This document shows positions 7,265 through 34,605 of a stretch of 64,000 bases of DNA, piece after piece. The DNA comes from Paramecium tetraurelia (lineage: Eukaryota), in the NCBI GenBank assembly GCA_000165425.1, contig CT868047.1:124001-188000 (forward strand). The letters run 5' to 3'. The notes beneath the pieces were generated by a model. It worked only from the letters and a program-made list of their open reading frames with translations, made no database searches and had not been told where the DNA came from. A program made the translations under genes and the position numbers. Each line of letters opens with the position of its first letter. Positions within the stretch are counted from its first letter, which is position 1.

Positions 7265-8862
7265 TCACATTGTATTTTCTACTTCTTCATCACATTCTTT
7301 CATTCCCAAAAGATCAAGAGTTGAAATAAGTTAATTTTATCTATTGTTTGAACCAGTTTCTTGAATGCTGTCTGTTAAATTGATATCTATACTGCATTCT
7401 ACCTTCCCACCAATCTAGTTTACAAATTATTAAAGTGGATTTCTCCTCTTTTCCTCAATTTATATATAGTTTCCTGTATTGCCTAGATCGACGCTGGATT
7501 ATATATTACAAAGATCTCCAAAACAATCTTATACCTAATTTTCAGCAGATACTTATTATATAGGTAAATATTTACATATACTCTACGAAGACCCTATCCC
7601 TAAATTGCATTTTCCATTACTATTGTTTGCTTCAATTTAGTTATTACCAGAACTATTACCAAGAGAATTGATTAATTATATTAGACCTGGATAATTTTCT
7701 CCATTCCTCTTTTAGACTACATGAATATTACCAAGTTCGTATATTAAATCTTCAATTACTATGTCTTAATATTCTAATCCAAGATGCAAAGTTTTTAATG
7801 CTCGATGCAAATTCTATTTTTAATTAATAGATAAACTGGTCTATAATGATTTGCACTTATTTGCTAATCCTTCATCTTCTTCAATTATCTTTGTTGACGA
7901 AAGCATTGCAATAGTAGTATATATTTGATTTTTTTCTATAAAAGGATGAGCTAATGCCTCCATTGGAGTAATTCTTTTTTTTGGATCAGCTGACAAAAGT
8001 CTAGATAATAGATTTTAAGCACTAAGGGATTCTTCCTTAACTCTGTTCTTGAAATTCCATTATTCAGGCTTCTTTAACAAATCAATTTAGTCATTAATAG
8101 AATTCGAATGTAAAGGCAATTCACCTGTCATACATTAAAACATAATGACTCCTACGCTCCATACGTCTACTTCTTTAGAGTAATGTGGCTAATGGTAAAT
8201 TTCAGGTGCGCAGTAATATATGTTGCCTGTTTTAGTGAGCATTTCAAGGTGCTAACTTTTTTATATAAACCTTCTTGAAACACCGAAATCAAGCAATTTT
8301 AATTCACAATCGCCCTCAATATTGACCAAAATATTATCCGGCTTTATATCTCTGTGGCTTATTCCTTTATTATGGATGTGTTGGATTGCAGTCAATAACT
8401 GTTTGATGACTTATCTAGTTTCTTCTTCTCTTAAAATTTTCCTCTATACTAATATTGATTCCAAAGTAGGATAAGGACAATATTCCATAACCAAACACGC
8501 ACTGCAATACTTTTCATTTATAAACAATTCTATCTCCTAAATTATGTTTTGATGTCGCAAACAACGAGCATTATAAAATGTTCTCTTAACATTATTATAT
8601 ATTTCCTCATTATTCATTCTCGTTACTTTTACTGCATATAATTCATTAGTTTCTTTTCTCCTTGCCAATTTTACTACTGCATGTGCTCCCTATCCTACAA
8701 ATCACTAAAATTCTTACCCAGCACTTACAATGCCTCATATCTATCTTCAAATTTTATAGCATCATCAACCACACTCAAACTAATTATTTCTGGCTTCTCT
8801 TCGTCTTCACCAAATTCTATTTTGCATTTCAGTCTCTCTTTTAAAGATTTATCTTACAACAT
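7265..8862 (-). CDS. Ser/Thr protein kinase (CAMK-like)
   Basis: GQGAHAVVK glycine loop (after a 23-nt intron), YAVK, HRDIKPDN, DFG, YCAPE, DVWSVG; TGA at 7265. Confidence 0.9.
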
Positions 8863-9507
8863 AATAATTATATAAATTTATGATAAAAATACTTGTAATA
8901 TCATATCTCATTCAATTAAGACAATTTTTTATTAAATTATACTGATTCAATTTCGTGTTGATTGCTTAAGATAATATTTCAATTATTATCACTTTAATTT
9001 ATTTTTAGATCAATTTTATTTCATAATTCTACTATGTAAAATTCTTATCATCCTAACAATCATTTAACTATTAACATGCATACTATAGACAAATTGATAG
9101 ATTCATCCCTTTCTAAATTTGAATTTTGTTTTTTAAATTATTATAACCGCTTTAAACAAAAATTAATTTATGTTCCCTTTAATAAATTGAAAATCCCAAT
9201 GAATTGCTGGGATCAAGCTATTACAATTAAAATGACTTATTAAAATTCTATTAATATCTTCATTACTTAAAATCTCTTCAGCAATATTATAATAATGTCT
9301 TTCCAAAGTATCTAATTTTTTGATACTTCTTAATTTACAATATATGTACTTGGCAATTATCATTATGCTAATTTAATTATTTTTCGAATTCCATAAGACG
9401 ATTAATAAATTTAAAAGATTTAATTTTTTCCTTTAATATCCAAGAAATAATAATAATATCTAAAGGCTATTTTTATACTTAATTAGCCCTTAATAAAATT
9501 ATTATAT

Positions 9508-9620
9508 TATATCAGATCTATTTTTATTTTTATATTTTGTTTTTAAAACTCTTCAATTAATTATAAATTATTTTAATCATGTTAATGCTAAATCAATTCT
9601 TCTACTACTTTTAGTGTATA
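9508..9620. mobile_element. IES-like (internal eliminated sequence) TA-bounded segment, 111 bp
   Basis: Present in copy 1 and absent in copy 2, which keeps a single TA (15190-15191). Ends are TATATCAG and (reverse complement) TATACACT; about 16% GC by hand count. Confidence 0.7.
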
Positions 9621-10018
9621 TGTATACAACTAGTGTTTGCCAAAAATTATATACTGTCAAATATATTTTTAATTTATTATATTCTTAATTCATTTGGTGA
9701 GTTTTTCTCGAAAAAATTATATTCACAATATTTCAGCCAATCAGAATCAAAATTACAAATGTCTCAAAGATTCTTTCATTCAATTCTTATGCTAAACAAT
9801 TAATTCTTGTGTTAACCAATTCATTCAATGTTTACTTATTTGTAATCCTAAAATATCTGAAAAATTAATCTTAATTAGAGAATAAAAGCTATTAAATTAT
9901 TATATTTGAATACTAATTTTTTTCAATAAAAATGAATTTTTGACCATTAATTACTAATGAAGAAGTTTGGAATCATTAACATTACTTATAAGTATATATT
10001 AATTTAATTTAATTCCTT

Positions 10019-10577
10019 TCAAAATTAAATACAAAAATTTTAATTTAAATTTTCATTTTCCTTTTTTTTTTCATTTTTTTTTTCATTTTTTTTTTCATGC
10101 AATAAGAGTCTATATGGTCTCACATCTTCTGAATTATTAACAACGAAAAATTGTTTTGATTTCATCATTTTACTTTATTTAATTTTCTTGGGATTTACTC
10201 TTGACATAAAAATAGGTGCAAATTATTTTTCACCAACCTAAGTGTATTTAGCATATTAATTATCAATACAGACCTTAATATCATTTGAAAAATAAATTCC
10301 TTTTCCAACTTTAACTTTCTCTCCAAGCTCATTAATACATTCATCATTTTAATGATGTTATTTCTCACCACTTATTAAATTGTTTTTTATAATTGAATTA
10401 ACAGCACCTTAATTGGTACCATGATACATAATTCTCCATTCTTTTGGATTACCATCCATTTTTAACCAATCATTTCCATGTTCTTTTACCTACTTTTCTA
10501 CATTTAACCCAAATCCATAGCAACCTATTGGAAAATAATAATCATATCTATGATAAGGAGGCCCTCTCTATTTTTTT
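10019..10577 (-). CDS. Duplicated 3' end of the ADP-ribosyltransferase gene (5' part lost in the gap)
   Basis: Matches 15590-16148: YHGT...GIYFS...DVRPYRLLL...FCIQF-TGA. Confidence 0.75.
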
Positions 10578-10727
10578 NNNNNNNNNNNNNNNNNNNNNNN
10601 NNNNNNNNNNNNNNNNNNNNNNNNNNNNNNNNNNNNNNNNNNNNNNNNNNNNNNNNNNNNNNNNNNNNNNNNNNNNNNNNNNNNNNNNNNNNNNNNNNNN
10701 NNNNNNNNNNNNNNNNNNNNNNNNNNN
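10578..10727. other. Assembly gap (150 N)
   Basis: Run of N. Open reading frames run into it from both sides. Confidence 1.
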
Positions 10728-12202
10728 TTTTCAGTTAAATATTTCCTTTACAACTAATTAGCACTGACTATAATTTTTCTTAAGTAGGATTAGAGCTTTT
10801 CGCTAGAGGAGATAGTTATCATTTTTTCCATATTTTACAACATTTCTAAAGGTTCAACTAAATTTGCTCTTGGACCTCCATCCATTTTGTCAGGCAATAG
10901 AGCTTTAGATTTACTAGTCCAATCACTATATATTTATAGTATTTTCTTAAACAAGTTCAAATACATATCCTTATATTGTTCGTAATCTTAATCAGGTGCA
11001 TCTTATTTATTAGAGGATGATTTAAAATCCATATCGTATTGATGTTTGCTAACTTATTGTTTGATTTCTAAATCCTTTTGTAGATGCAAAAGTTATTTTT
11101 CAAGTTAAATGTTGTCGAGCTCTAAATCTGACACTCTTTTGGTGAGAATCAAGTTTTAATTCTCAAAATAATCATATTTATCTATGAATTTTTCAGCTTA
11201 AAAGTTTTCGAACCTCTTAGTCATAATGTTGAATTAAGGAATGAACTTTTCAATTTCAACTGTGCTCCTCTTGAGTTCGTCTAATTATTATTTGGGAAGC
11301 TTGATTTCTTTGAGAAGTTGAATATTCTTAAAATTCAGACTTTCCATTCGAACTCTACAATTCAAAGATCTTCCCCTTAGCCATTTCTAATTAATCCACA
11401 AGTTCTTAGCTAATTATAGATAATAGGGTACTTTTCTCTTGTAAATTTATCGATGTAGATGAGCATTTATTGTGTAACTTACTCTAATTAGAGCCTTGGA
11501 TTCGCTCAAGACTTTTTCTTTGGCAAGATTATTGATCATCGTATAAAGAGAGTTCTCTGCCTTTTATTTGATTTCCAGAATGGCTCTTCTTCTTGGATTC
11601 ATTTTAGCCATTTCTGAGGTGCTTTTGACCAAGTTTTCAATGGTTTTTTTGGGTTGGAAACTCTGAGTCTTGATTTACAGTTTTTTCTTGAGACTGCTTG
11701 AAGTATGCTTTTGCGTATTCAATGCTGACTTAGTTTACAAATATATATTACAGAAACTTAAAGTTTAAATTCTTCATCAATGGGTCCTGGTTTGGTGTAA
11801 ATATAATTTCCGAAAGCATCAAAAACAATTCTATGAAAGTTTTTTTTGAATTGCTCATATTCATCCTGATTAATTTACACTTCCTTTTCGAAATAGTCCT
11901 CTGGTGGATCAATTTCAGCCTATTCTTTTGTAACCCTCAAATTGCACGATACATTTTCAGATCTTGCTCCTACATTGACTTTCTTCTCTTGCAACTTGAG
12001 CAAACTCCTTGGTGTGAGACTTGTAGCGGCAGTATATTTGTTGATTAATAGTTATTGATCTTGATCATCATTTGGAATAGATAGTCTAAGATGCAATATT
12101 TATTTACTGAAATTGAGGTCTTCGAGGGCTTGTCACAGCTGTTTATGGTCTTGTGCGAGCTGAACTTAAGAAAGAGCTCTTAGGACTTGTGTGAACAGAC
12201 AT
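10728..12202 (-). CDS. Hypothetical coiled-coil protein, 3' end lost in the gap
   Basis: MSVHTSPKSSFLSSARTRPQTAVTSPRRPQ... with short introns; the frame is still open (...QRKYLTE) at the gap. Confidence 0.75.
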
Positions 12203-12400
12203 TTTAATAATAGTTATATTAATAAATGAAGATTTTGTCATACTAGTTGAGTGGAGTATTGTTGGAAATCATTAGAAATTAAGGAGAAAATCAAAGTATT
12301 GTAAAAGGGAAGTTATGTATTCCCATTATGTTTAATTAATTTGGTGAATTTATATACGTTTTTAACAAAAATGAAGTGATAAAGTTATTTATAAATTGCA

Positions 12401-13588
12401 ATGTCTTAACACAAAATCTTTGCTAAATAGGATGTAAGGAAGCTCTACTTAGATGAACAAGGGAATGTTGATTTTAATAAGATATAGGCCAGATGGGATG
12501 AGTTGAAGAATATAAAGGTGAGCTTAGCCAACAAACATTATACTCAAGCAGTAGTTGAGAAGGTGAAAACAATGTCTGCTGAAGACTAATAACGATTCTT
12601 AGATATAGTGATAGCCGGTCTAACAAATGATGATAGCTAAGTTGGTATATCAGCCACAAGACCAGAGGATTATGATGTTTTTCTGTTTTATCTAGAACCA
12701 ATAATCAGAGAATATCATAAGATCGAAGGGGAGACGAAGCAAGAACATGATTGGAATATCCCAGTTGGTGAATATGTATTAACAAAGATTGATCCTGCAT
12801 TGGAGAAGGTTTCAATGAGAGCCAGAGTGGCCAGAAATGTTGTTGGTTACAATTTACCATCATCAATGGATAAGGATGAGAGGATCAAATTTGAGAATCA
12901 AATGGTAACTGTGTTTGAAAACTTTGGAATTCCAGGAAATTATTACAGTCTAACACCAGGTCATAAGAATTTTATATCAGATCAAAAGGCTGATGAGTTA
13001 AGGAAAAGGCATTTCTTATTTATAGATATGACAAGTGACAATCATTTAATGTCGAATGGTGTAGCATCAGATTGGCCATTTGGAAGAGGAATCTGGATAA
13101 GTTAAGATGAGAGTAAAATGGTTTGGGTAGGAGAAGAAGATTAATTAAGAATTATTTCAATTGTCTAAGGAAATGATTTAGGCAAGGTTGATTAATCCCT
13201 TCATGAATTATTAAATGGTATTGAAAAGAGTGGTCTCAAATTTGCTGAGCATCCAGTCTATGGTATCATAACAACATGTCCAACCAATATGGGAACTGGA
13301 AAAAGATAATCTATCTTGGGCAAATTCCCAAATCTTAGTAAAGCTGGAACAGACGAAGCCAATTTGAAAGATAAAGCAAAATCAATTGGATTATAAGCAA
13401 GAGGAATCGGTGGTGAGCACTCATCTGTGGATCAAGAAGGAACTGCTGACATTTCCCCATCAGCAAGATTTGGTGTCACAGAAGCTATTGTAACCAAGAG
13501 GTTATTTGAAGGATTAATTGTGCTCTATTAAATAGAAAAAACAACAGTTCCAGAAAAGGCTAGAAATAATTGTTGCACAATATTTTGA
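12401..13588 (+). CDS. Arginine kinase (phosphagen kinase) with C-terminal CaaX-like CCTIF
   Basis: Intronless, 395 aa: SMRARVARN, DWPFGRGI, WVGEEDQLRIIS, TCPTNMGTG, RGIGGEH; ends NNCCTIF-TGA. Confidence 0.93.
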
Positions 13589-13711
13589 ATATCTTAATAC
13601 AAAAATATCAAATATTTATTTCAATGTTGTTCTAATTAAACTCAAATTTAATAGCAAATATGATCAATTTAAATATAAATAATTAATTTTATTGATAATT
13701 TTAACAATAAA

Positions 13712-14940
13712 TCATCTCAATTTACTTATTTTCCATTAGAATATAGAATTGTCTTCTCCGCCAATACTAAACAAGTAATGATCTTCCATTGACCAAGCAA
13801 TGTTGGTAATATGAGATGAATGTCCTTTTCCTAAGATGTATGCTGATTCTTTCTTAACGCAAGGATATCTATATTATTACATTTAGCATATACCTAAATA
13901 CTTTGATTTATGAGTTATCATCACCAGTTGCAATCAAATGATAATTATCAGGGGGTTTATCCTTTTCATTATATGTCTTATTTGATCTGACAGCAGCATT
14001 GATATCACTGCCATCTTAGATATCTGGCCATATTCCTTAAACTGGCCATCCGTATGGTGTAGTCCAAGTCAACCATTTCTCATCTCTTAATTAATTTGCT
14101 CCATTTGGCAATTATTTACCAGTTTGAAGTTCCCAAAACAATAGTTCATATCTGAATAACATAAGTATTAATTAGATACCCTCCGCAATTGCTATGAAGA
14201 TGATTTCCATCTATGGAGAAATCAATATGAGTAATGTAGCTTGAATGTTTCTTGAGTGGTTTGTAACGTTGTTTCATATCTGGGAAACTGTAGATATATA
14301 TGGAATTATCATGAGATCCAATTGCAATCCAAGATTGATCATGACTGAATTTGATATCACTAATCCACTCTTTGGCTAATCTATTAACATATTTTTATTT
14401 GAATTCTTTATCATATATCTTAAGTTAATTACTTATAAAATACCCTAAATGTTCCATCCTTAAATCCTACGCATATTGAAATACCATCCAAAGAAACAGC
14501 TATACATCTACCTTTTGTATTATCAGGCAATTCACCAACTTCATCTTGTTTGATTTCTGCTCCATTAACATCAAGATTGGTTTTGATGCAATTGAGCATT
14601 TTCTTTTGACTGATAGACCAAGATCTTAGAGTTCCATCATCTCCACAAGTATAGTATTGATCAGAATCTTGTGGATTAATAGCCAAACCCCAAATTTCAT
14701 TCAAAGATCGCTTATTTGGAGAACAATGAGATTTCATTAAGGTTTTAGAAACAGCAAATTTGGAGTTAATATTGATTTTGGCATCTTTAGTAACTAATTC
14801 AACAATATCTCCAGCATTAGTTGATATAAGTAAAGTCTTCTAATCATACCCTAACGATATGGACTTGACTTCTAATCCCAATGAATTGCTGGGATCAAGC
14901 TATTACAATTAAAATGACTTATTAAAATTCTATTAATATC
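13712..14940 (-). CDS. EML (echinoderm microtubule-associated protein-like) WD40 protein, C-terminal part only (5'-truncated)
   Basis: EIWGLA, TCGDDGTLRSW, IGSHDN, HSSYITHIDFS, GWPVQGIWP, ATGDD, GHSSHITN, SIGGEDNSIFQW; three introns. The frame hits TGA near 14942 with no N-terminal propeller upstream. Confidence 0.85.
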
Positions 14941-16148
14941 TTCATTACTTAAAATCTCTTCAGCAATATTATAATAATGTCTTTCCAAAGTATCTAATTT
15001 TTTGATACTTCTTAATTTACAATATATGTACTTGGCAATTATCATTATGCTAATTTAATTATTTTTCGAATTCCATAAGACGATTAATAAATTTAAAAGA
15101 TTTAATTTTTTCCTTTAATATCCAAGAAATAATAATAATATCTAAAGGCTATTTTTATACTTAATTAGCCCTTAATAAAATTATTATATTATGTATACAA
15201 CTAGTGTTTGCCAAAAATTATATACTGTCAAATATATTTTTAATTTATTATATTCTTAATTCATTTGGTGAGTTTTTCTCGAAAAAATTATATTCACAAT
15301 ATTTCAGCCAATCAGAATCAAAATTACAAATGTCTCAAAGATTCTTTCATTCAATTCTTATGCTAAACAATTAATTCTTGTGTTAACCAATTCATTCAAT
15401 GTTTACTTATTTGTAATCCTAAAATATCTGAAAAATTAATCTTAATTAGAGAATAAAAGCTATTAAATTATTATATTTGAATACTAATTTTTTTCAATAA
15501 AAATGAATTTTTGACCATTAATTACTAATGAAGAAGTTTGGAATCATTAACATTACTTATAAGTATATATTAATTTAATTTAATTCCTTTCAAAATTAAA
15601 TACAAAAATTTTAATTTAAATTTTCATTTTCCTTTTTTTTTTCATTTTTTTTTTCATTTTTTTTTTCATGCAATAAGAGTCTATATGGTCTCACATCTTC
15701 TGAATTATTAACAACGAAAAATTGTTTTGATTTCATCATTTTACTTTATTTAATTTTCTTGGGATTTACTCTTGACATAAAAATAGGTGCAAATTATTTT
15801 TCACCAACCTAAGTGTATTTAGCATATTAATTATCAATACAGACCTTAATATCATTTGAAAAATAAATTCCTTTTCCAACTTTAACTTTCTCTCCAAGCT
15901 CATTAATACATTCATCATTTTAATGATGTTATTTCTCACCACTTATTAAATTGTTTTTTATAATTGAATTAACAGCACCTTAATTGGTACCATGATACAT
16001 AATTCTCCATTCTTTTGGATTACCATCCATTTTTAACCAATCATTTCCATGTTCTTTTACCTACTTTTCTACATTTAACCCAAATCCATAGCAACCTATT
16101 GGAAAATAATAATCATATCTATGATAAGGAGGCCCTCTCTATTTTTTT
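14874..16148. repeat. Direct duplicate copy 2 (lacks the 111-bp segment)
   Basis: Matches 9192-10577, including the (T10CA)3 run. Confidence 0.95.
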
Positions 16149-17268
16149 TCATGAAAATTATCCCAGCTCATATTGTGTGAAGGATTCAAATCATCAAAAG
16201 AAAGAGTGACTCCTTTTGATTAGCTATTTGCTTGATGAAAGTATTCTACGTAATCTACATTTCCATTACAATACTCATATAAGAATTTCTTTGCTTCTGG
16301 ATTTTAAAACTATTATGAAATCCATTTCCTACTAGCTCTTATAATATTAAAGCAAATTTTCAAACTACCCTTTGATACTCCTAAAATTTCAATTTAATCA
16401 GTTGAAATATTGAGTGAACTTGATAGCTTTTACTTAAATTCTAATAAATGTTATTACAATAATTGGTTGTCATTCACAATTTTATCATAATCAAGATTTG
16501 TATTTCTTACTTTTAAACAATATTAATCTTAGCCATAATATTCAATTATTGAATCAAATCCAAAGGAATATTATTTACTTGTTGCTAATAATTCTCGATT
16601 TTGATCTCTCAATAATGATTCTTTTAAAACAAAAAGTGCCAATTCAGGATTTGAGACTTCAATATTCTATTTCACATGAGGAATTGATTTAGTTTTGCCA
16701 TAATCTTTTAATTTTGTAATTAGTTATTATTAATATTAATGTTTAAGGTATTATTTTTAATTATTTGTAAGATTCTTATTATTATCTAATTATTTAAGTT
16801 CTTTATTTAATATATCAATTTATTCCTCAATTGATTTTGAACGAATTTCTTATTATATATATATTTATTAACAAACTAATAATAAGTCTTAATTAAAAAT
16901 TTCCTTTTTCTCAAATTAATCTTTCAGTTCGGTTACAACTTTTTCTTATTTAATTAAAGTTGATTAACTTGTTGTTTATAAGTCTTATTAAAGCATTCGC
17001 TTCAATTCAAATACACATTTTTCATTATCTCCTAAAATCCTGTTTAATGTCGTTCCATCTATGCTTATATTTTTATTAAAAGTGGGCAAGAAAAATTGAT
17101 AATCCTTGCTATTTCCTTACATGCTAACATTAATTAAAGTTCTGAATACTTTAGAAATTTTATTGTTAACAATTCAAAAAGGTCTAAAGTAGAGGTAGTT
17201 TTTGCTAAAGAAGCTTAAGATTTGACCTCAAAGCAATAAATGTCGATTTCATAATATTCTGGCAGCAT
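15590..17268 (-). CDS. PARP-like ADP-ribosyltransferase (Gig2/NEURL4-like) with possible N-terminal ubiquitin-like domain and C-terminal CaaX-like CIQF
   Basis: ATG at 17268, one 26-nt intron, ~550 aa. RGPPYHRYDYYFPIGCYGFGLNV, WRIMYHGT, VGKGIYFS, FMSRVNP, QFFVVNNSEDVRPYRLLL, EKKNEKKNEKKKE...FCIQF-TGA. Confidence 0.8.
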
Positions 17269-17450
17269 CAAATTGTATTAAATTATTAATATTTAAACAA
17301 AATATGAATAGGCCTTATTTATTGTTTTAATTTTATAAATAAACTAGTGTTTCTAAAAATAATATATTAAATCTGTCTAATTAAATGGAGCAGCATTAAT
17401 TAGATGCTTATTCATAAATGAATTTTTTATTTTGTATAAAATCCAATCTA

Positions 17451-19363
17451 TCATACACAAATAAAAGAATGTGAATTAATCGCTGAAATTTCAGCTTGAT
17501 TCTATTCTCTTTAAATAGTCTTGATCCACAAACCGCATTCTTCCTTGGTTTTAGTTTTAAATTTATAAATTTTGGAATCTTCTAACTAGATCTTAAAATT
17601 CGCAGGTTTCTATGATTAGGAATGACTTCATCCATATTTTGAAGGATGATTTGTTTTATGCCTCTCTTGAATTGGAATTGATATACCAATACATAAACCC
17701 TTTCTAATTCTAATATATCTATAATCCCAGGCTTTCGATTATGGTTCCTTCTTATATAGATAGCCTTCATCTACAAATTCTTCCTTTTCAATTAAGTTTC
17801 GTTATTATTATTTCTAGGGTATCTATAATTATAATATATATGTTTACATATTGAATTTCTTGATCATTAAAATCTAATTTAATATCTGCTCCTCTGATCA
17901 CTTATTCTTACCATTAACCAGTTTCTTATTGATCATCCTCTTAGCCTAAAAAGTCCATAATTCTAACACTTTCATCCTCTATAGGTAGTGTTTTATTGAT
18001 ATCCTCAATTAGAGTATTGCAAATTTCGATAGTGTCTTTCTTTTACTATTTATCCAATTCTATTCTTAGGGTCATAATAGATATGATTGTTTTCTCTGAA
18101 AATGCTCTACAAAAATACTATCGTAAACTTTTACAAGGATCCAGAATACTCAGAGATTCTTCATTTAAAAATGATTCTGTATTATTTGTGGAATTTTCAA
18201 ATACTTCCTTAATTGTGAATTTAAATTTAATTTCTAAATCAACTAACTATTCTTCTTTATCATATCATCAAATGGTTTCATAGTTGCTTAAAATTACTCT
18301 CAAAAATGAATTTTTCTAATTCTTAGAATAGAATATCTTTGTCAGTATCTAATTTTCTGATGAATTCATTAAGTAAAGTAGTAGAGAATAATGGAATCAG
18401 TAAGTTGTTTCCAGATTTTCCTACTAAATCTGTCATGAAATTGTGATAAGGTTTCAGTGGCTGGCTCAATTATGGATTTAACAGTATCTATAATTTTGAT
18501 TTGGAGATAAGGTTTTTAAAATGAGTGCCTATCCGACTGAAATAGAATACGAATATTCCTTCCTTACAATTACTGGCAATCTAATCAAAATTCTTGGTGA
18601 TTTTCTGTGGTATTATCATGCAAAGCCAAAGTGTTTTACATATGGCCACTTATTTAGGAACAGAGAGTTTGTGTTCATCAATGATTTCTTGAATCCCACC
18701 TTAATATTATTATAGGATAACTTTGCCAAACCTCCGAATCTGGGTATTGTTTCTTTACATGAACATAATTTATATGCCATATCAAAGCCTTCTTTTACGA
18801 TTTTAAACAGATCAACAGAAGTCTAAGTAATTAATTGTTCTTATTCATTCTAGAATGGCTCTTAAATGCTATGAGTTGTAATTCCGGAGACTATTTATGA
18901 TATTACCTTTAATTACTTATATTTTCATGTAAGACTAATCCCACAACTTTGTAATTCTACTACAATTTTTTCATGATAAATATTGCATTGATTCCAACAT
19001 ATCTTATCACAGATGGGTCAATTAATTAAAAAACTTATTCAGATCTGCATCCTCTTCTGTCAAGATGGCTGCCATGTCTGATTCTAAATTCTATTGAATC
19101 TTTTCTCTCCTAGCTAGTAATTGAGTTTCTTCTTCATAAAACTTGATTAATGGGTCAATGTTCTTTTTTATTTTAATTTTTAATGGGTTATTGATTGCCT
19201 TAGTTGTTCTGATAAATTTACTTAGAGCAGATTGCCACTTTCTACATTCCAATTCTGAATCAGCTATGAGATGATATAATCTATCTCCCATATTCAATTT
19301 GAAGGTGTATCCACTTTCTTTTGATTTGGACATATTTTTAAGGCAGATCTCTTTTTTTGATAA
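17451..19363 (-). pseudogene. Decayed PH / Sec6-like / PH domain gene
   Basis: Half PH domain (FKLNMGDRLYHLIADSELECRKWQSAL), in-frame TGA at 19007-19009, several frameshifts, Sec6-like ITQTSVDLFKIVKE, and a frameshifted C-terminal PH (EGYLYKK...WDYRYIRI...KTKEECGLWIKTI). Confidence 0.75.
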
Positions 19364-33171: not shown

Positions 33172-34605
33172 ATGAAACATCATGCCAAATTATTAATCCT
33201 ATGTCCATTTAATTCTATTGGATATTAGCTATTGGATCAGAAAATAGAGGAATACCTCAAAACCAACCAAGAAGAAATAGTTCTCTACTTGGTAGGAACC
33301 CCAATCACATATCTTAAAGTCTATGAACAGATTTTATTTCATCTTTATGGGAGAACACAACATTATCCTACTAAATTCAATGTGATTTTCGATCTATTCA
33401 ACAAGGAATTCAGAAACAAATACCAATTCGATTTGGTAATCAATTTGGGCACTCATTTAGAAGGCGATTTCAATCTACATTTTAAACTCAATCATGAAAT
33501 TTAAAAAATCCACTTTTCTTAAGAGGGCCATAAAGTAAATCAATATAAAAGAGGTGCTAATGGTGGTACTTTTGATCATTTGCATATTGGACACAAAGTG
33601 CTTCTAAGTCTGAGTTTGTTAGCAGTCAGTGAGCATTTGACCATAGGAATAACTGGTGAAATGTTATAACAAAAGAAGAAATTGAAAGGTTTCCTCTAAT
33701 CCTACAACACTCGTCTCAGATGTGTCTAAGAGTTTTGCTCTATGTTCAGACCTGATATCGATTTGTATTTCTCTGAATTAACTGAACCTGCAGGTCCAAC
33801 AAGAAATGGACAATACGAAATATTGATTACCACAAAAGAGTGTCAAAATTCCTTAGAGTACATAAATAATCTGAGGAAGCAAGAGAATCTGAATGAATTG
33901 GAAGGATACATAATTGGTATGATTGAAAATGAGAATGTTTAAGGAGAGGCTAAAATATCATCAACTTAATATAGAGAATAAATTTCAGAAAGGAATAGAT
34001 TAACCGAATATGAGTATTTGGAACTCAAGACAGAATGGCTGTCAATAAGTGACAATGCATATTGGTTTGAATCTATTCTAGTGGATTATTATTCGTAACC
34101 CTAGAGACACTATCACACTTTAAGACACATCTACGATATGTTAAGATAATTAAAAGGAACCAAGAACATAAGGAATGTTAAATTGGCAACATTCTTCCAT
34201 GATGCAATATACTACCCTAAAATTCACGATAATGAAGAGAAGAGTTGCTTGTTGTTTTAATAGTTTGCCAAGGAATGCAAGATTGATTCAGAGGTAGTCT
34301 CAATTTTCATTTTGTAAACTAAGAGTCATCAAACTGATGTGCCATTCCTACCAGAGGACGATTTGTCAGATCTGATGATATTTTTAGATGCTGATATGTC
34401 AATCTTAGAATCTGATGCTTATCCTATTTATGCTCAAGATATAAGAAAGGAGTATTCGCATTTCCCAGATAAGGAGTACAAAACTGGTAGGATTGCTGTG
34501 TTGTAGAAGTTCCTGGAGTCTAAGATATATAATTTGAGGAGTGAAGAGAAGGCAAGAAAAAATATTTAAGAGGAGATTGAAATATTATAAAATTGGGTAG
34601 TGTGA
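33172..34605 (+). CDS. Phosphopantetheine adenylyltransferase-like (HxGH nucleotidyltransferase) fused to an HD-superfamily phosphohydrolase
   Basis: Intronless, 477 aa. GGTFDHLHIGHKVLL, IGIT, QSYNTR, ELTEPAGPT, KISST; then RHYHTLRHI, FFHDAIY, NEEKS, FLDADMSIL, IRKEYS, GRIAVL. Confidence 0.85.

Follow-up and report, generated by a model that had tools for sequence, protein, structure and literature searches.

The 64,000-nucleotide stretch of DNA analyzed here (the window) comes from the macronuclear (MAC) reference of Paramecium tetraurelia, where it is part of a scaffold of 224,907 bp; its G+C content is 28.6%. Within it, one stretch, hereafter B, is written twice, as copy 1 at 9192-10577 and as copy 2 at 14874-16148. 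The left neighbor of copy 1 is referred to as flank A, the left neighbor of copy 2 as piece X, and the forms of B with and without a 111-bp segment as +111 and -111, respectively. The features of the locus are as follows.

7265-9191, minus strand: flank A, a protein kinase gene (open reading frame 7265-8701, first exon to ~8860) and its upstream DNA
9192-9507: left part of B in copy 1 (B-left), 100% identical to 14874-15189
9192-9205: the 14-nt word AATCCCAATGAATT that opens B, which encodes NSLG on the minus strand
9508-9620: the 111-bp segment with both TAs (9508-9509 and 9619-9620), intergenic, 16% G+C
9621-10577, minus strand: right part of B in copy 1 (B-right), intergenic DNA and the 3' 186 codons of a PARP-like gene (10019-10577), cut by the gap
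10578-10727: scaffold gap of 150 N, the sole gap of the window
10728-14873: piece X, 4.1 kb, which starts at the gap and holds the next three genes
10728 to ~12100, minus strand: coiled-coil gene of X, cut by the gap
12401-13588, plus strand: arginine kinase gene of X
13715-14873, minus strand: 3' part of an EML-like gene of X
14873-14874: X-B junction, where the EML homology ends within coding sequence
14874-16148: copy 2 of B, without the 111 bp, which runs unbroken into the rest of the PARP-like gene
15590-17173, minus strand: PARP-like gene, an open frame of 527 codons, whole in copy 2 only

The kinase of flank A was clearly recognized by Pfam (Pkinase, E 1.2e-59). The match of the PARP-like gene to the Pfam PARP family was weak (E 1.8e-4, 21.5 bits, below the cut-off of 26.7), and it sits in the C-terminal third of the protein, as a match to the catalytic domain. 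The PARP-like protein ends in a lysine/glutamate-rich tail, which is encoded by a 12-nt tandem repeat (10056-10098 in copy 1). In piece X, the coiled-coil gene (10728-11773, minus strand) runs into the gap and lacks its 3' end, so that both ends of X cut genes. The arginine kinase gene between them is intron-less and encodes 395 residues with the C-terminal sequence CCTIF; its product clusters at 90% or above with a P. tetraurelia arginine kinase of known structure (PDB 7EWS), and the same cluster contains the ohnologue GSPATT00012910001 from another scaffold. The Rfam search gave no matches in 8500-17500, and the tRNA search gave no genes in the same interval.

In the self-comparison of the window, 9192-9510 matched 14874-15192 over 319 bp, and 9619-10577 matched 15190-16148 over 959 bp, both without a mismatch. 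The two blocks are collinear, and the start-to-start spacing of the copies falls from 5682 to 5571 across the indel, which corresponds to exactly 111 extra bases in copy 1. The copies are thus identical at 1278 of 1278 shared bases, and differ only in the one TA-bounded 111-bp segment that copy 1 alone contains. Copy 1 reads ATTATAT-TA (9508-9509)-TATCAG...TTAGTGTA-TA (9619-9620)-TGTATAC, and copy 2 reads ATTATAT-TA-TGTATAC, with the TA at 15190-15191. The segment therefore has a TA on both sides and leaves a single TA in the short form; the direct repeat at its boundaries is 3 bp, TAT (15190-15192 in copy 2), rather than TA alone. The left neighbors of the copies, up to 9191 and up to 14873, have unrelated sequences, and copy 1 ends on the base before the run of N. 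The open reading frames across the indel all start downstream of it, and so carry no information about the indel.

The letters of the two copies quoted in the original prediction were correct when the window was re-read, and the alignment bore out its statements that 111 bp were lost precisely with one TA left behind, apart from the longer TAT repeat, and that no further difference separates the copies. The segment is, as described there, very AT-rich, with a G+C content of 16% as compared to ~20% in its flanks. The gap at the end of copy 1, the unbranched +111 contigs, and the gene-breaking X-B join, all of which are described below, had been missed.

The two ends of the 111-bp segment differ in their agreement with the IES consensus TAYAGYNR. 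The left end, TATATCAG, matches at 7 of 8 positions, a score reached or exceeded by just 6% of the window's 6705 TAs, whereas the right end, TATACACT, matches at 5 of 8, which is the commonest score; about two thirds of the TAs in the window score at least 5. The G at position 5 is absent from both ends. The ends read TATAT and TATAC, with a pyrimidine at position 5, and without the R of the TATNR logo. When a 111-bp deletion was placed at random, it was bounded by TA on both sides at 1.1% of the positions in the window, and at 1.8% of those in this intergenic stretch. Among 3-bp microhomologies at a spacing of 111 bp, however, 24-26% contain a TA. The TA footprint therefore exceeds chance as compared to random breakage, but does not discriminate against microhomology-mediated deletion. 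The footprint had been presented as established evidence of PiggyMac-dependent IES excision; a deletion at the 3-bp TAT microhomology fits the letters equally well, and the -111 form is seen only beside the join that breaks a gene.

Sequence data from public runs were used to see which form of the locus is represented in reads. Of the 24 runs listed (13 studies), 20 contain 0.98 of the 215 words sampled from 8600-10577; the words that touch the 111 bp make up ~7% of the 215 by our arithmetic, so that these 20 runs must hold most of them. The Logan contigs of four runs (X3, X9, X13, and X16, from four studies) were aligned to 8600-10577. In each of the four, a single contig (14097, 14097, 7992, and 3143 nt, respectively) spans 8600-10026 with no differences or gaps, bridging the left flank A, the A-B junction, and both ends of the 111-bp segment. 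In the bins 9062-9523 and 9590-9655, the depth came from this spanning contig alone in all four runs. Among the contig pieces listed for the four runs, no second contig, of either the X-B or the -111 type, was present on B-left or on the flanks of the indel, and neither a joint for the -111 form nor a loose end at 9192 was found. The contigs over B-right (10099-10316 and 10291-10526) had 0.8-1.3 times the depth of the A contig, as compared to the approximately twofold depth expected of a two-copy sequence, although contig depth is a rough measure that does not give copy number.

These results indicate that A-B(+111) is present and unbranched in the contigs; the absence of -111 or X-B molecules does not follow, because Logan contigs drop rare variants. 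Three of these runs are flagged as possible sources of the reference DNA, and may thus depend on it, and the run records do not state the nucleus of origin. The contig assemblies amount to 74-105 Mb, and the smallest (74 Mb), which is near the 72 Mb of the reference, is also +111. Flank A is therefore the native left neighbor of B, and the native sequence represented in the read sets is A-B(+111)-R, that is, the kinase gene, ~1.1 kb of intergenic DNA with the 111 bp, and the PARP-like gene. All four read sets include the 111 bp in the macronuclear sequence assembled from them, so these bases are macronucleus-destined DNA, a part of the normal macronuclear sequence, and not a conventional IES.

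A part of the 111-bp segment, which overlaps a TATTTT tandem array (9519-9545), has a look-alike of at least 95% elsewhere in the genome. The bin 9524-9589, within the segment, received extra depth from another contig in all four runs, and in X13 such a contig matches up to 9577 and then diverges.

The segment shares with canonical PiggyMac-dependent IESs the TA boundaries, a low G+C content, a length below 150 bp, and one end that partly matches TAYAGYNR. Unlike these IESs, which are by definition eliminated from the macronucleus, it is retained, at the contig level, in all four sets, and also in the reference contig that keeps the native context. The original prediction had nevertheless taken the excision footprint as established; this is not supported, with the 111 bp present in four of four contig sets and with ends as weak as these. 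A related reading is that of a variably excised IES, or of a frequently excised cryptic one, in which a sizeable share of the A-B molecules in the macronucleus would be without the 111 bp, and the assembler would have split the two forms. The TA at both ends, the single TA left, the 16% G+C, and the 7/8 left end are consistent with this, and excision errors of such a type are documented in the relevant passages of PMC3464196 and PMC4132734; moreover, contig assemblies pop minority bubbles, so that a minority -111 form would not show. On the other hand, +111 was found in all four contig sets, the smallest included; the contig of the reference that keeps the native context, A-B, is +111, and -111 is limited to the contig with the aberrant X-B join. 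The right end has the commonest TA score of the window, both ends lack a G at position 5 as well as the R of TATNR, and the length of 111 bp departs widely from the dominant peak of cryptic TA-indels at 26-30 nt, as far as PMC4132734 describes them. We consider a variably excised IES decidedly unlikely.

The X-B junction was analyzed through the EML-like gene at the right end of X. This gene corresponds to XP_001434149 (GSPATT00035882001), a macronuclear P. tetraurelia model of 405 residues, which spans 13715-15076 on the minus strand and draws its residues 1-44 from copy 2 of B, by way of the exons 15076-15032 and 14993-14949 and the start (first 44 nt) of the exon 14917-14444. The homology of the model to its family starts at approximately residue 42-45, i.e., at 14873. 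Its sole cluster mate, the P. octaurelia orthologue CAD8156719 (1208 residues), has ~392 extra N-terminal residues, comprising the first propeller, ahead of the sequence NSLGLEVKS, and reads ...CMRNSLGLEVKS at the break point. In a tblastn search with five relatives (CAD8156719 and four proteins of 559-663 residues), EML-like coding sequence was found in the window only at 13715-14917, and sequence coding for the EML N-terminal part was not found elsewhere in the window. In all four of the longer relatives checked, the match started at residue 205-338 of the relative. Consistently, Pfam recognized the second EML propeller as whole (PF23414, 312.6 bits), whereas the first gave 28.9 bits, below the cut-off of 88.2.

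Because the homology stops at the X-B junction and the N-terminal residues of CAD8156719 have no counterpart in the window, the X-B join appears to cut the EML-like gene in the middle of its coding sequence. Predicted EML-like proteins of 374-389 residues that start near the same point occur in distant relatives, so that the truncation is read mainly from the one P. octaurelia orthologue. Among P. tetraurelia proteins, no close match to the missing N-terminal half was found, the best having 50% identity in the size range of 215-686 residues and 40% in that of 687-2000 residues, which hints that this half may be missing from the reference. CAD8156719 itself contains an exact internal repeat (residues 384-568 and 835-1019, offset by 451 residues). 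This repeat could be a genuine tandem duplication, or that assembly could be redundant as well.

The 14-nt word AATCCCAATGAATT has just two occurrences in the window, at 9192 and at 14874, and on its minus strand gives the NSLG that precedes LEVKS. If the P. tetraurelia gene uses the same NSLG codons, the X-B join would sit on ~14 nt of microhomology. An origin of the join by TA-to-TA excision was considered and rejected, as the native A-B letters at 9191-9192 are AA rather than TA. A native position of X between A and B was also rejected, since the contigs join A directly to B and the X-B join would still break the EML-like gene. None of the six table-11 open reading frames that cross the A-B or the X-B junction had an exact match in the protein collection.

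Gene positions in P. octaurelia were compared through gene models guessed as intron-less, two of nine of which were present in the protein collection, neither of them being one of the three A-side guesses or the PARP-like guess. The orthologues of the arginine kinase and of the EML-like gene of X, CAD8156717 and CAD8156719, are near-neighbors by accession number on a scaffold of 624,492 bp, and the gene at 33172-34602, which lies 17 kb to the right, has its orthologue, CAD8207526, on another scaffold (301,188 bp). These positions fit a foreign origin of X, on a one-sided comparison that covers two genes of X and this gene to the right.

Taken together, the end of copy 1 at the gap, the 100% identity of the copies, the single-copy contigs, and the broken EML-like gene argue that the duplication is a redundancy of the assembly and not real. 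Copy 1 has the marks of a redundant contig end: it is identical to a nearby stretch and stops at a gap, the other junction, X-B, is not a native gene arrangement, and the read sets show, at the contig level, one copy with one left junction. Passages of Arnaiz 2012 (PMC3464196) describe partially redundant scaffolds that arose from assembly errors in the P. tetraurelia MAC reference. The present case resembles those described there, in that an identical sequence stands twice, once at a contig end or gap, and reads show one; it differs from them in that it lies inside one chromosome-size scaffold rather than in a small extra scaffold, and in that the second copy is attached to a foreign piece of 4.1 kb.

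A true duplication in which only one copy is excised had been offered as one of the explanations. Such a recent segmental duplication in the sequenced strain, with a second B-R next to X that alone loses the 111 bp, would account for the contiguity of both junctions in the scaffold, and recent segmental duplications exist in the P. tetraurelia genome according to a passage of Arnaiz 2012 (PMC3464196). We regard it as highly improbable, as copy 1 stops at the gap with just the 3' part of the PARP-like gene, the identity is 100% over 1278 bp, the contigs are unbranched through 9192 and over the whole of 8600-10026, B-right has approximately the depth of the flank (~1x) in four of four runs, and the X-B join destroys the EML-like gene.

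We therefore conclude that the two copies are most probably one P. tetraurelia locus written twice around an assembly gap, and that the -111 form comes from an aberrant molecule. The -111 form is known only beside the X-B join. In such a molecule, X would have been fused to B, with the 111 bp missing 319 bp further on, and the assembler would have followed the path from X into B-R. The normal +111 reads, not mergeable with that path, would have been left as a redundant end of the contig before the gap; this end reaches 959 bp beyond the indel, by our estimate roughly the length of one Sanger read. The scaffolder would then have set the two contigs side by side with a gap between them. The original prediction had also inferred that the same locus was captured in two forms, a "cryptic TA-indel captured as two haplotypes"; this part of it stands, whereas the retained or variably excised IES proposed along with it is unlikely. 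Both phenomena involved, redundant scaffolds and low-frequency TA-indels, are already documented, and neither is new.

The aberrant molecule might have been a real product of the developing macronucleus of the sequenced culture. In that case, off-target PiggyMac cuts at weak TA ends would have removed the 111 bp, the end of the broken EML-like gene from another chromosome would have been captured via the 14-nt microhomology, and X-B(-111) would have been amplified into the reference. A somatic mis-rearrangement of this kind fits a single molecule with two junctions at a distance of 319 bp, of which one is bounded by TA, and assemblers do not usually build a join from a single read. Cryptic excision that is reduced by PGM knockdown is known, as stated in a passage of PMC4132734. 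Conversely, precise IES-type repair leaves a TA at the join, whereas A-B has AA at 9191-9192 and X-B sits on the 14-nt microhomology instead; nothing of the kind is seen in the contigs of the four later read sets, and a chimeric or recombined clone explains the same letters. A somatic mis-rearrangement is thus unlikely. If it were true, the locus would provide a natural example of excision errors that seed inter-chromosomal joins in the ciliate soma.

Within the assembly-redundancy reading, the loss of the 111 bp can be explained in two ways. Tentatively, the most likely is that it was a second microhomology step, at TAT, of the same rearrangement that produced the X-B join; it could have occurred in the cell or in the clone, through template switching or recombination. 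Alternatively, the PiggyMac excision machinery may have made a low-frequency "cryptic" TA-indel independently of that rearrangement. According to the part of PMC3464196 that summarizes Duret et al. 2008, the P. tetraurelia Sanger reads revealed 739 residual and 1090 low-frequency TA-indels, the latter being excised MAC-destined DNA; Swart 2014 (PMC4132734), in a passage on cryptic TA-indels, reports ends with a weak TATNR logo, lengths that peak at 26-30 nt, and fewer events after PGM knockdown. The molecule with the -111 form, however, has a further microhomology junction, one without TA, at a distance of only 319 bp. With low-frequency TA-indels occurring in roughly one per thousand reads, by our rough estimate, an independent coincidence of the two would be unlikely, unless -111 is common at this site. 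This leads us to lean toward a single complex, microhomology-mediated event, and to consider the independent TA-indel somewhat doubtful and the less likely of the two.

The segment was also compared with the low-frequency TA-indels. As in that class, the major MAC form contains the TA-bounded 111 bp and the minor one lacks them, with one TA left, and the segment lies in AT-rich, non-coding DNA. Unlike the typical members, it is 111 bp long, outside the dominant 26-30 nt, its ends (TATAT/TATAC) are without the R of TATNR, and the molecule with the -111 form has, in cis, a second junction that is not at a TA. The major +111 form is seen in the contigs, which drop rare variants, and the minor -111 form only in the reference contig with the X-B join. 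The segment may thus belong formally to the low-frequency (cryptic) TA-indel class, and may work like one; it would then be at most one more case beside the ~1090 already catalogued.

The value of these results lies mainly in curation, as the scaffold carries a false duplication of 1.3 kb and a misplaced piece of 4.1 kb. The model GSPATT00035882001 is a chimera, whose first 44 residues come from unrelated intergenic DNA and whose true N-terminal half is missing, and at 10019-10577 the PARP-like copy is a phantom. Read mapping, IES calling, and scans for "IES-plus/IES-minus" pairs are all misled by redundancy of this kind.

The last 80 bases before the gap (10497-10577) belong to a conserved part of the PARP-like gene, on which many short contigs pile up, some with one or two differing letters; in X3, their depth was 860 as compared to 92. 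This multi-copy family stretch may have helped to end the contig of copy 1.
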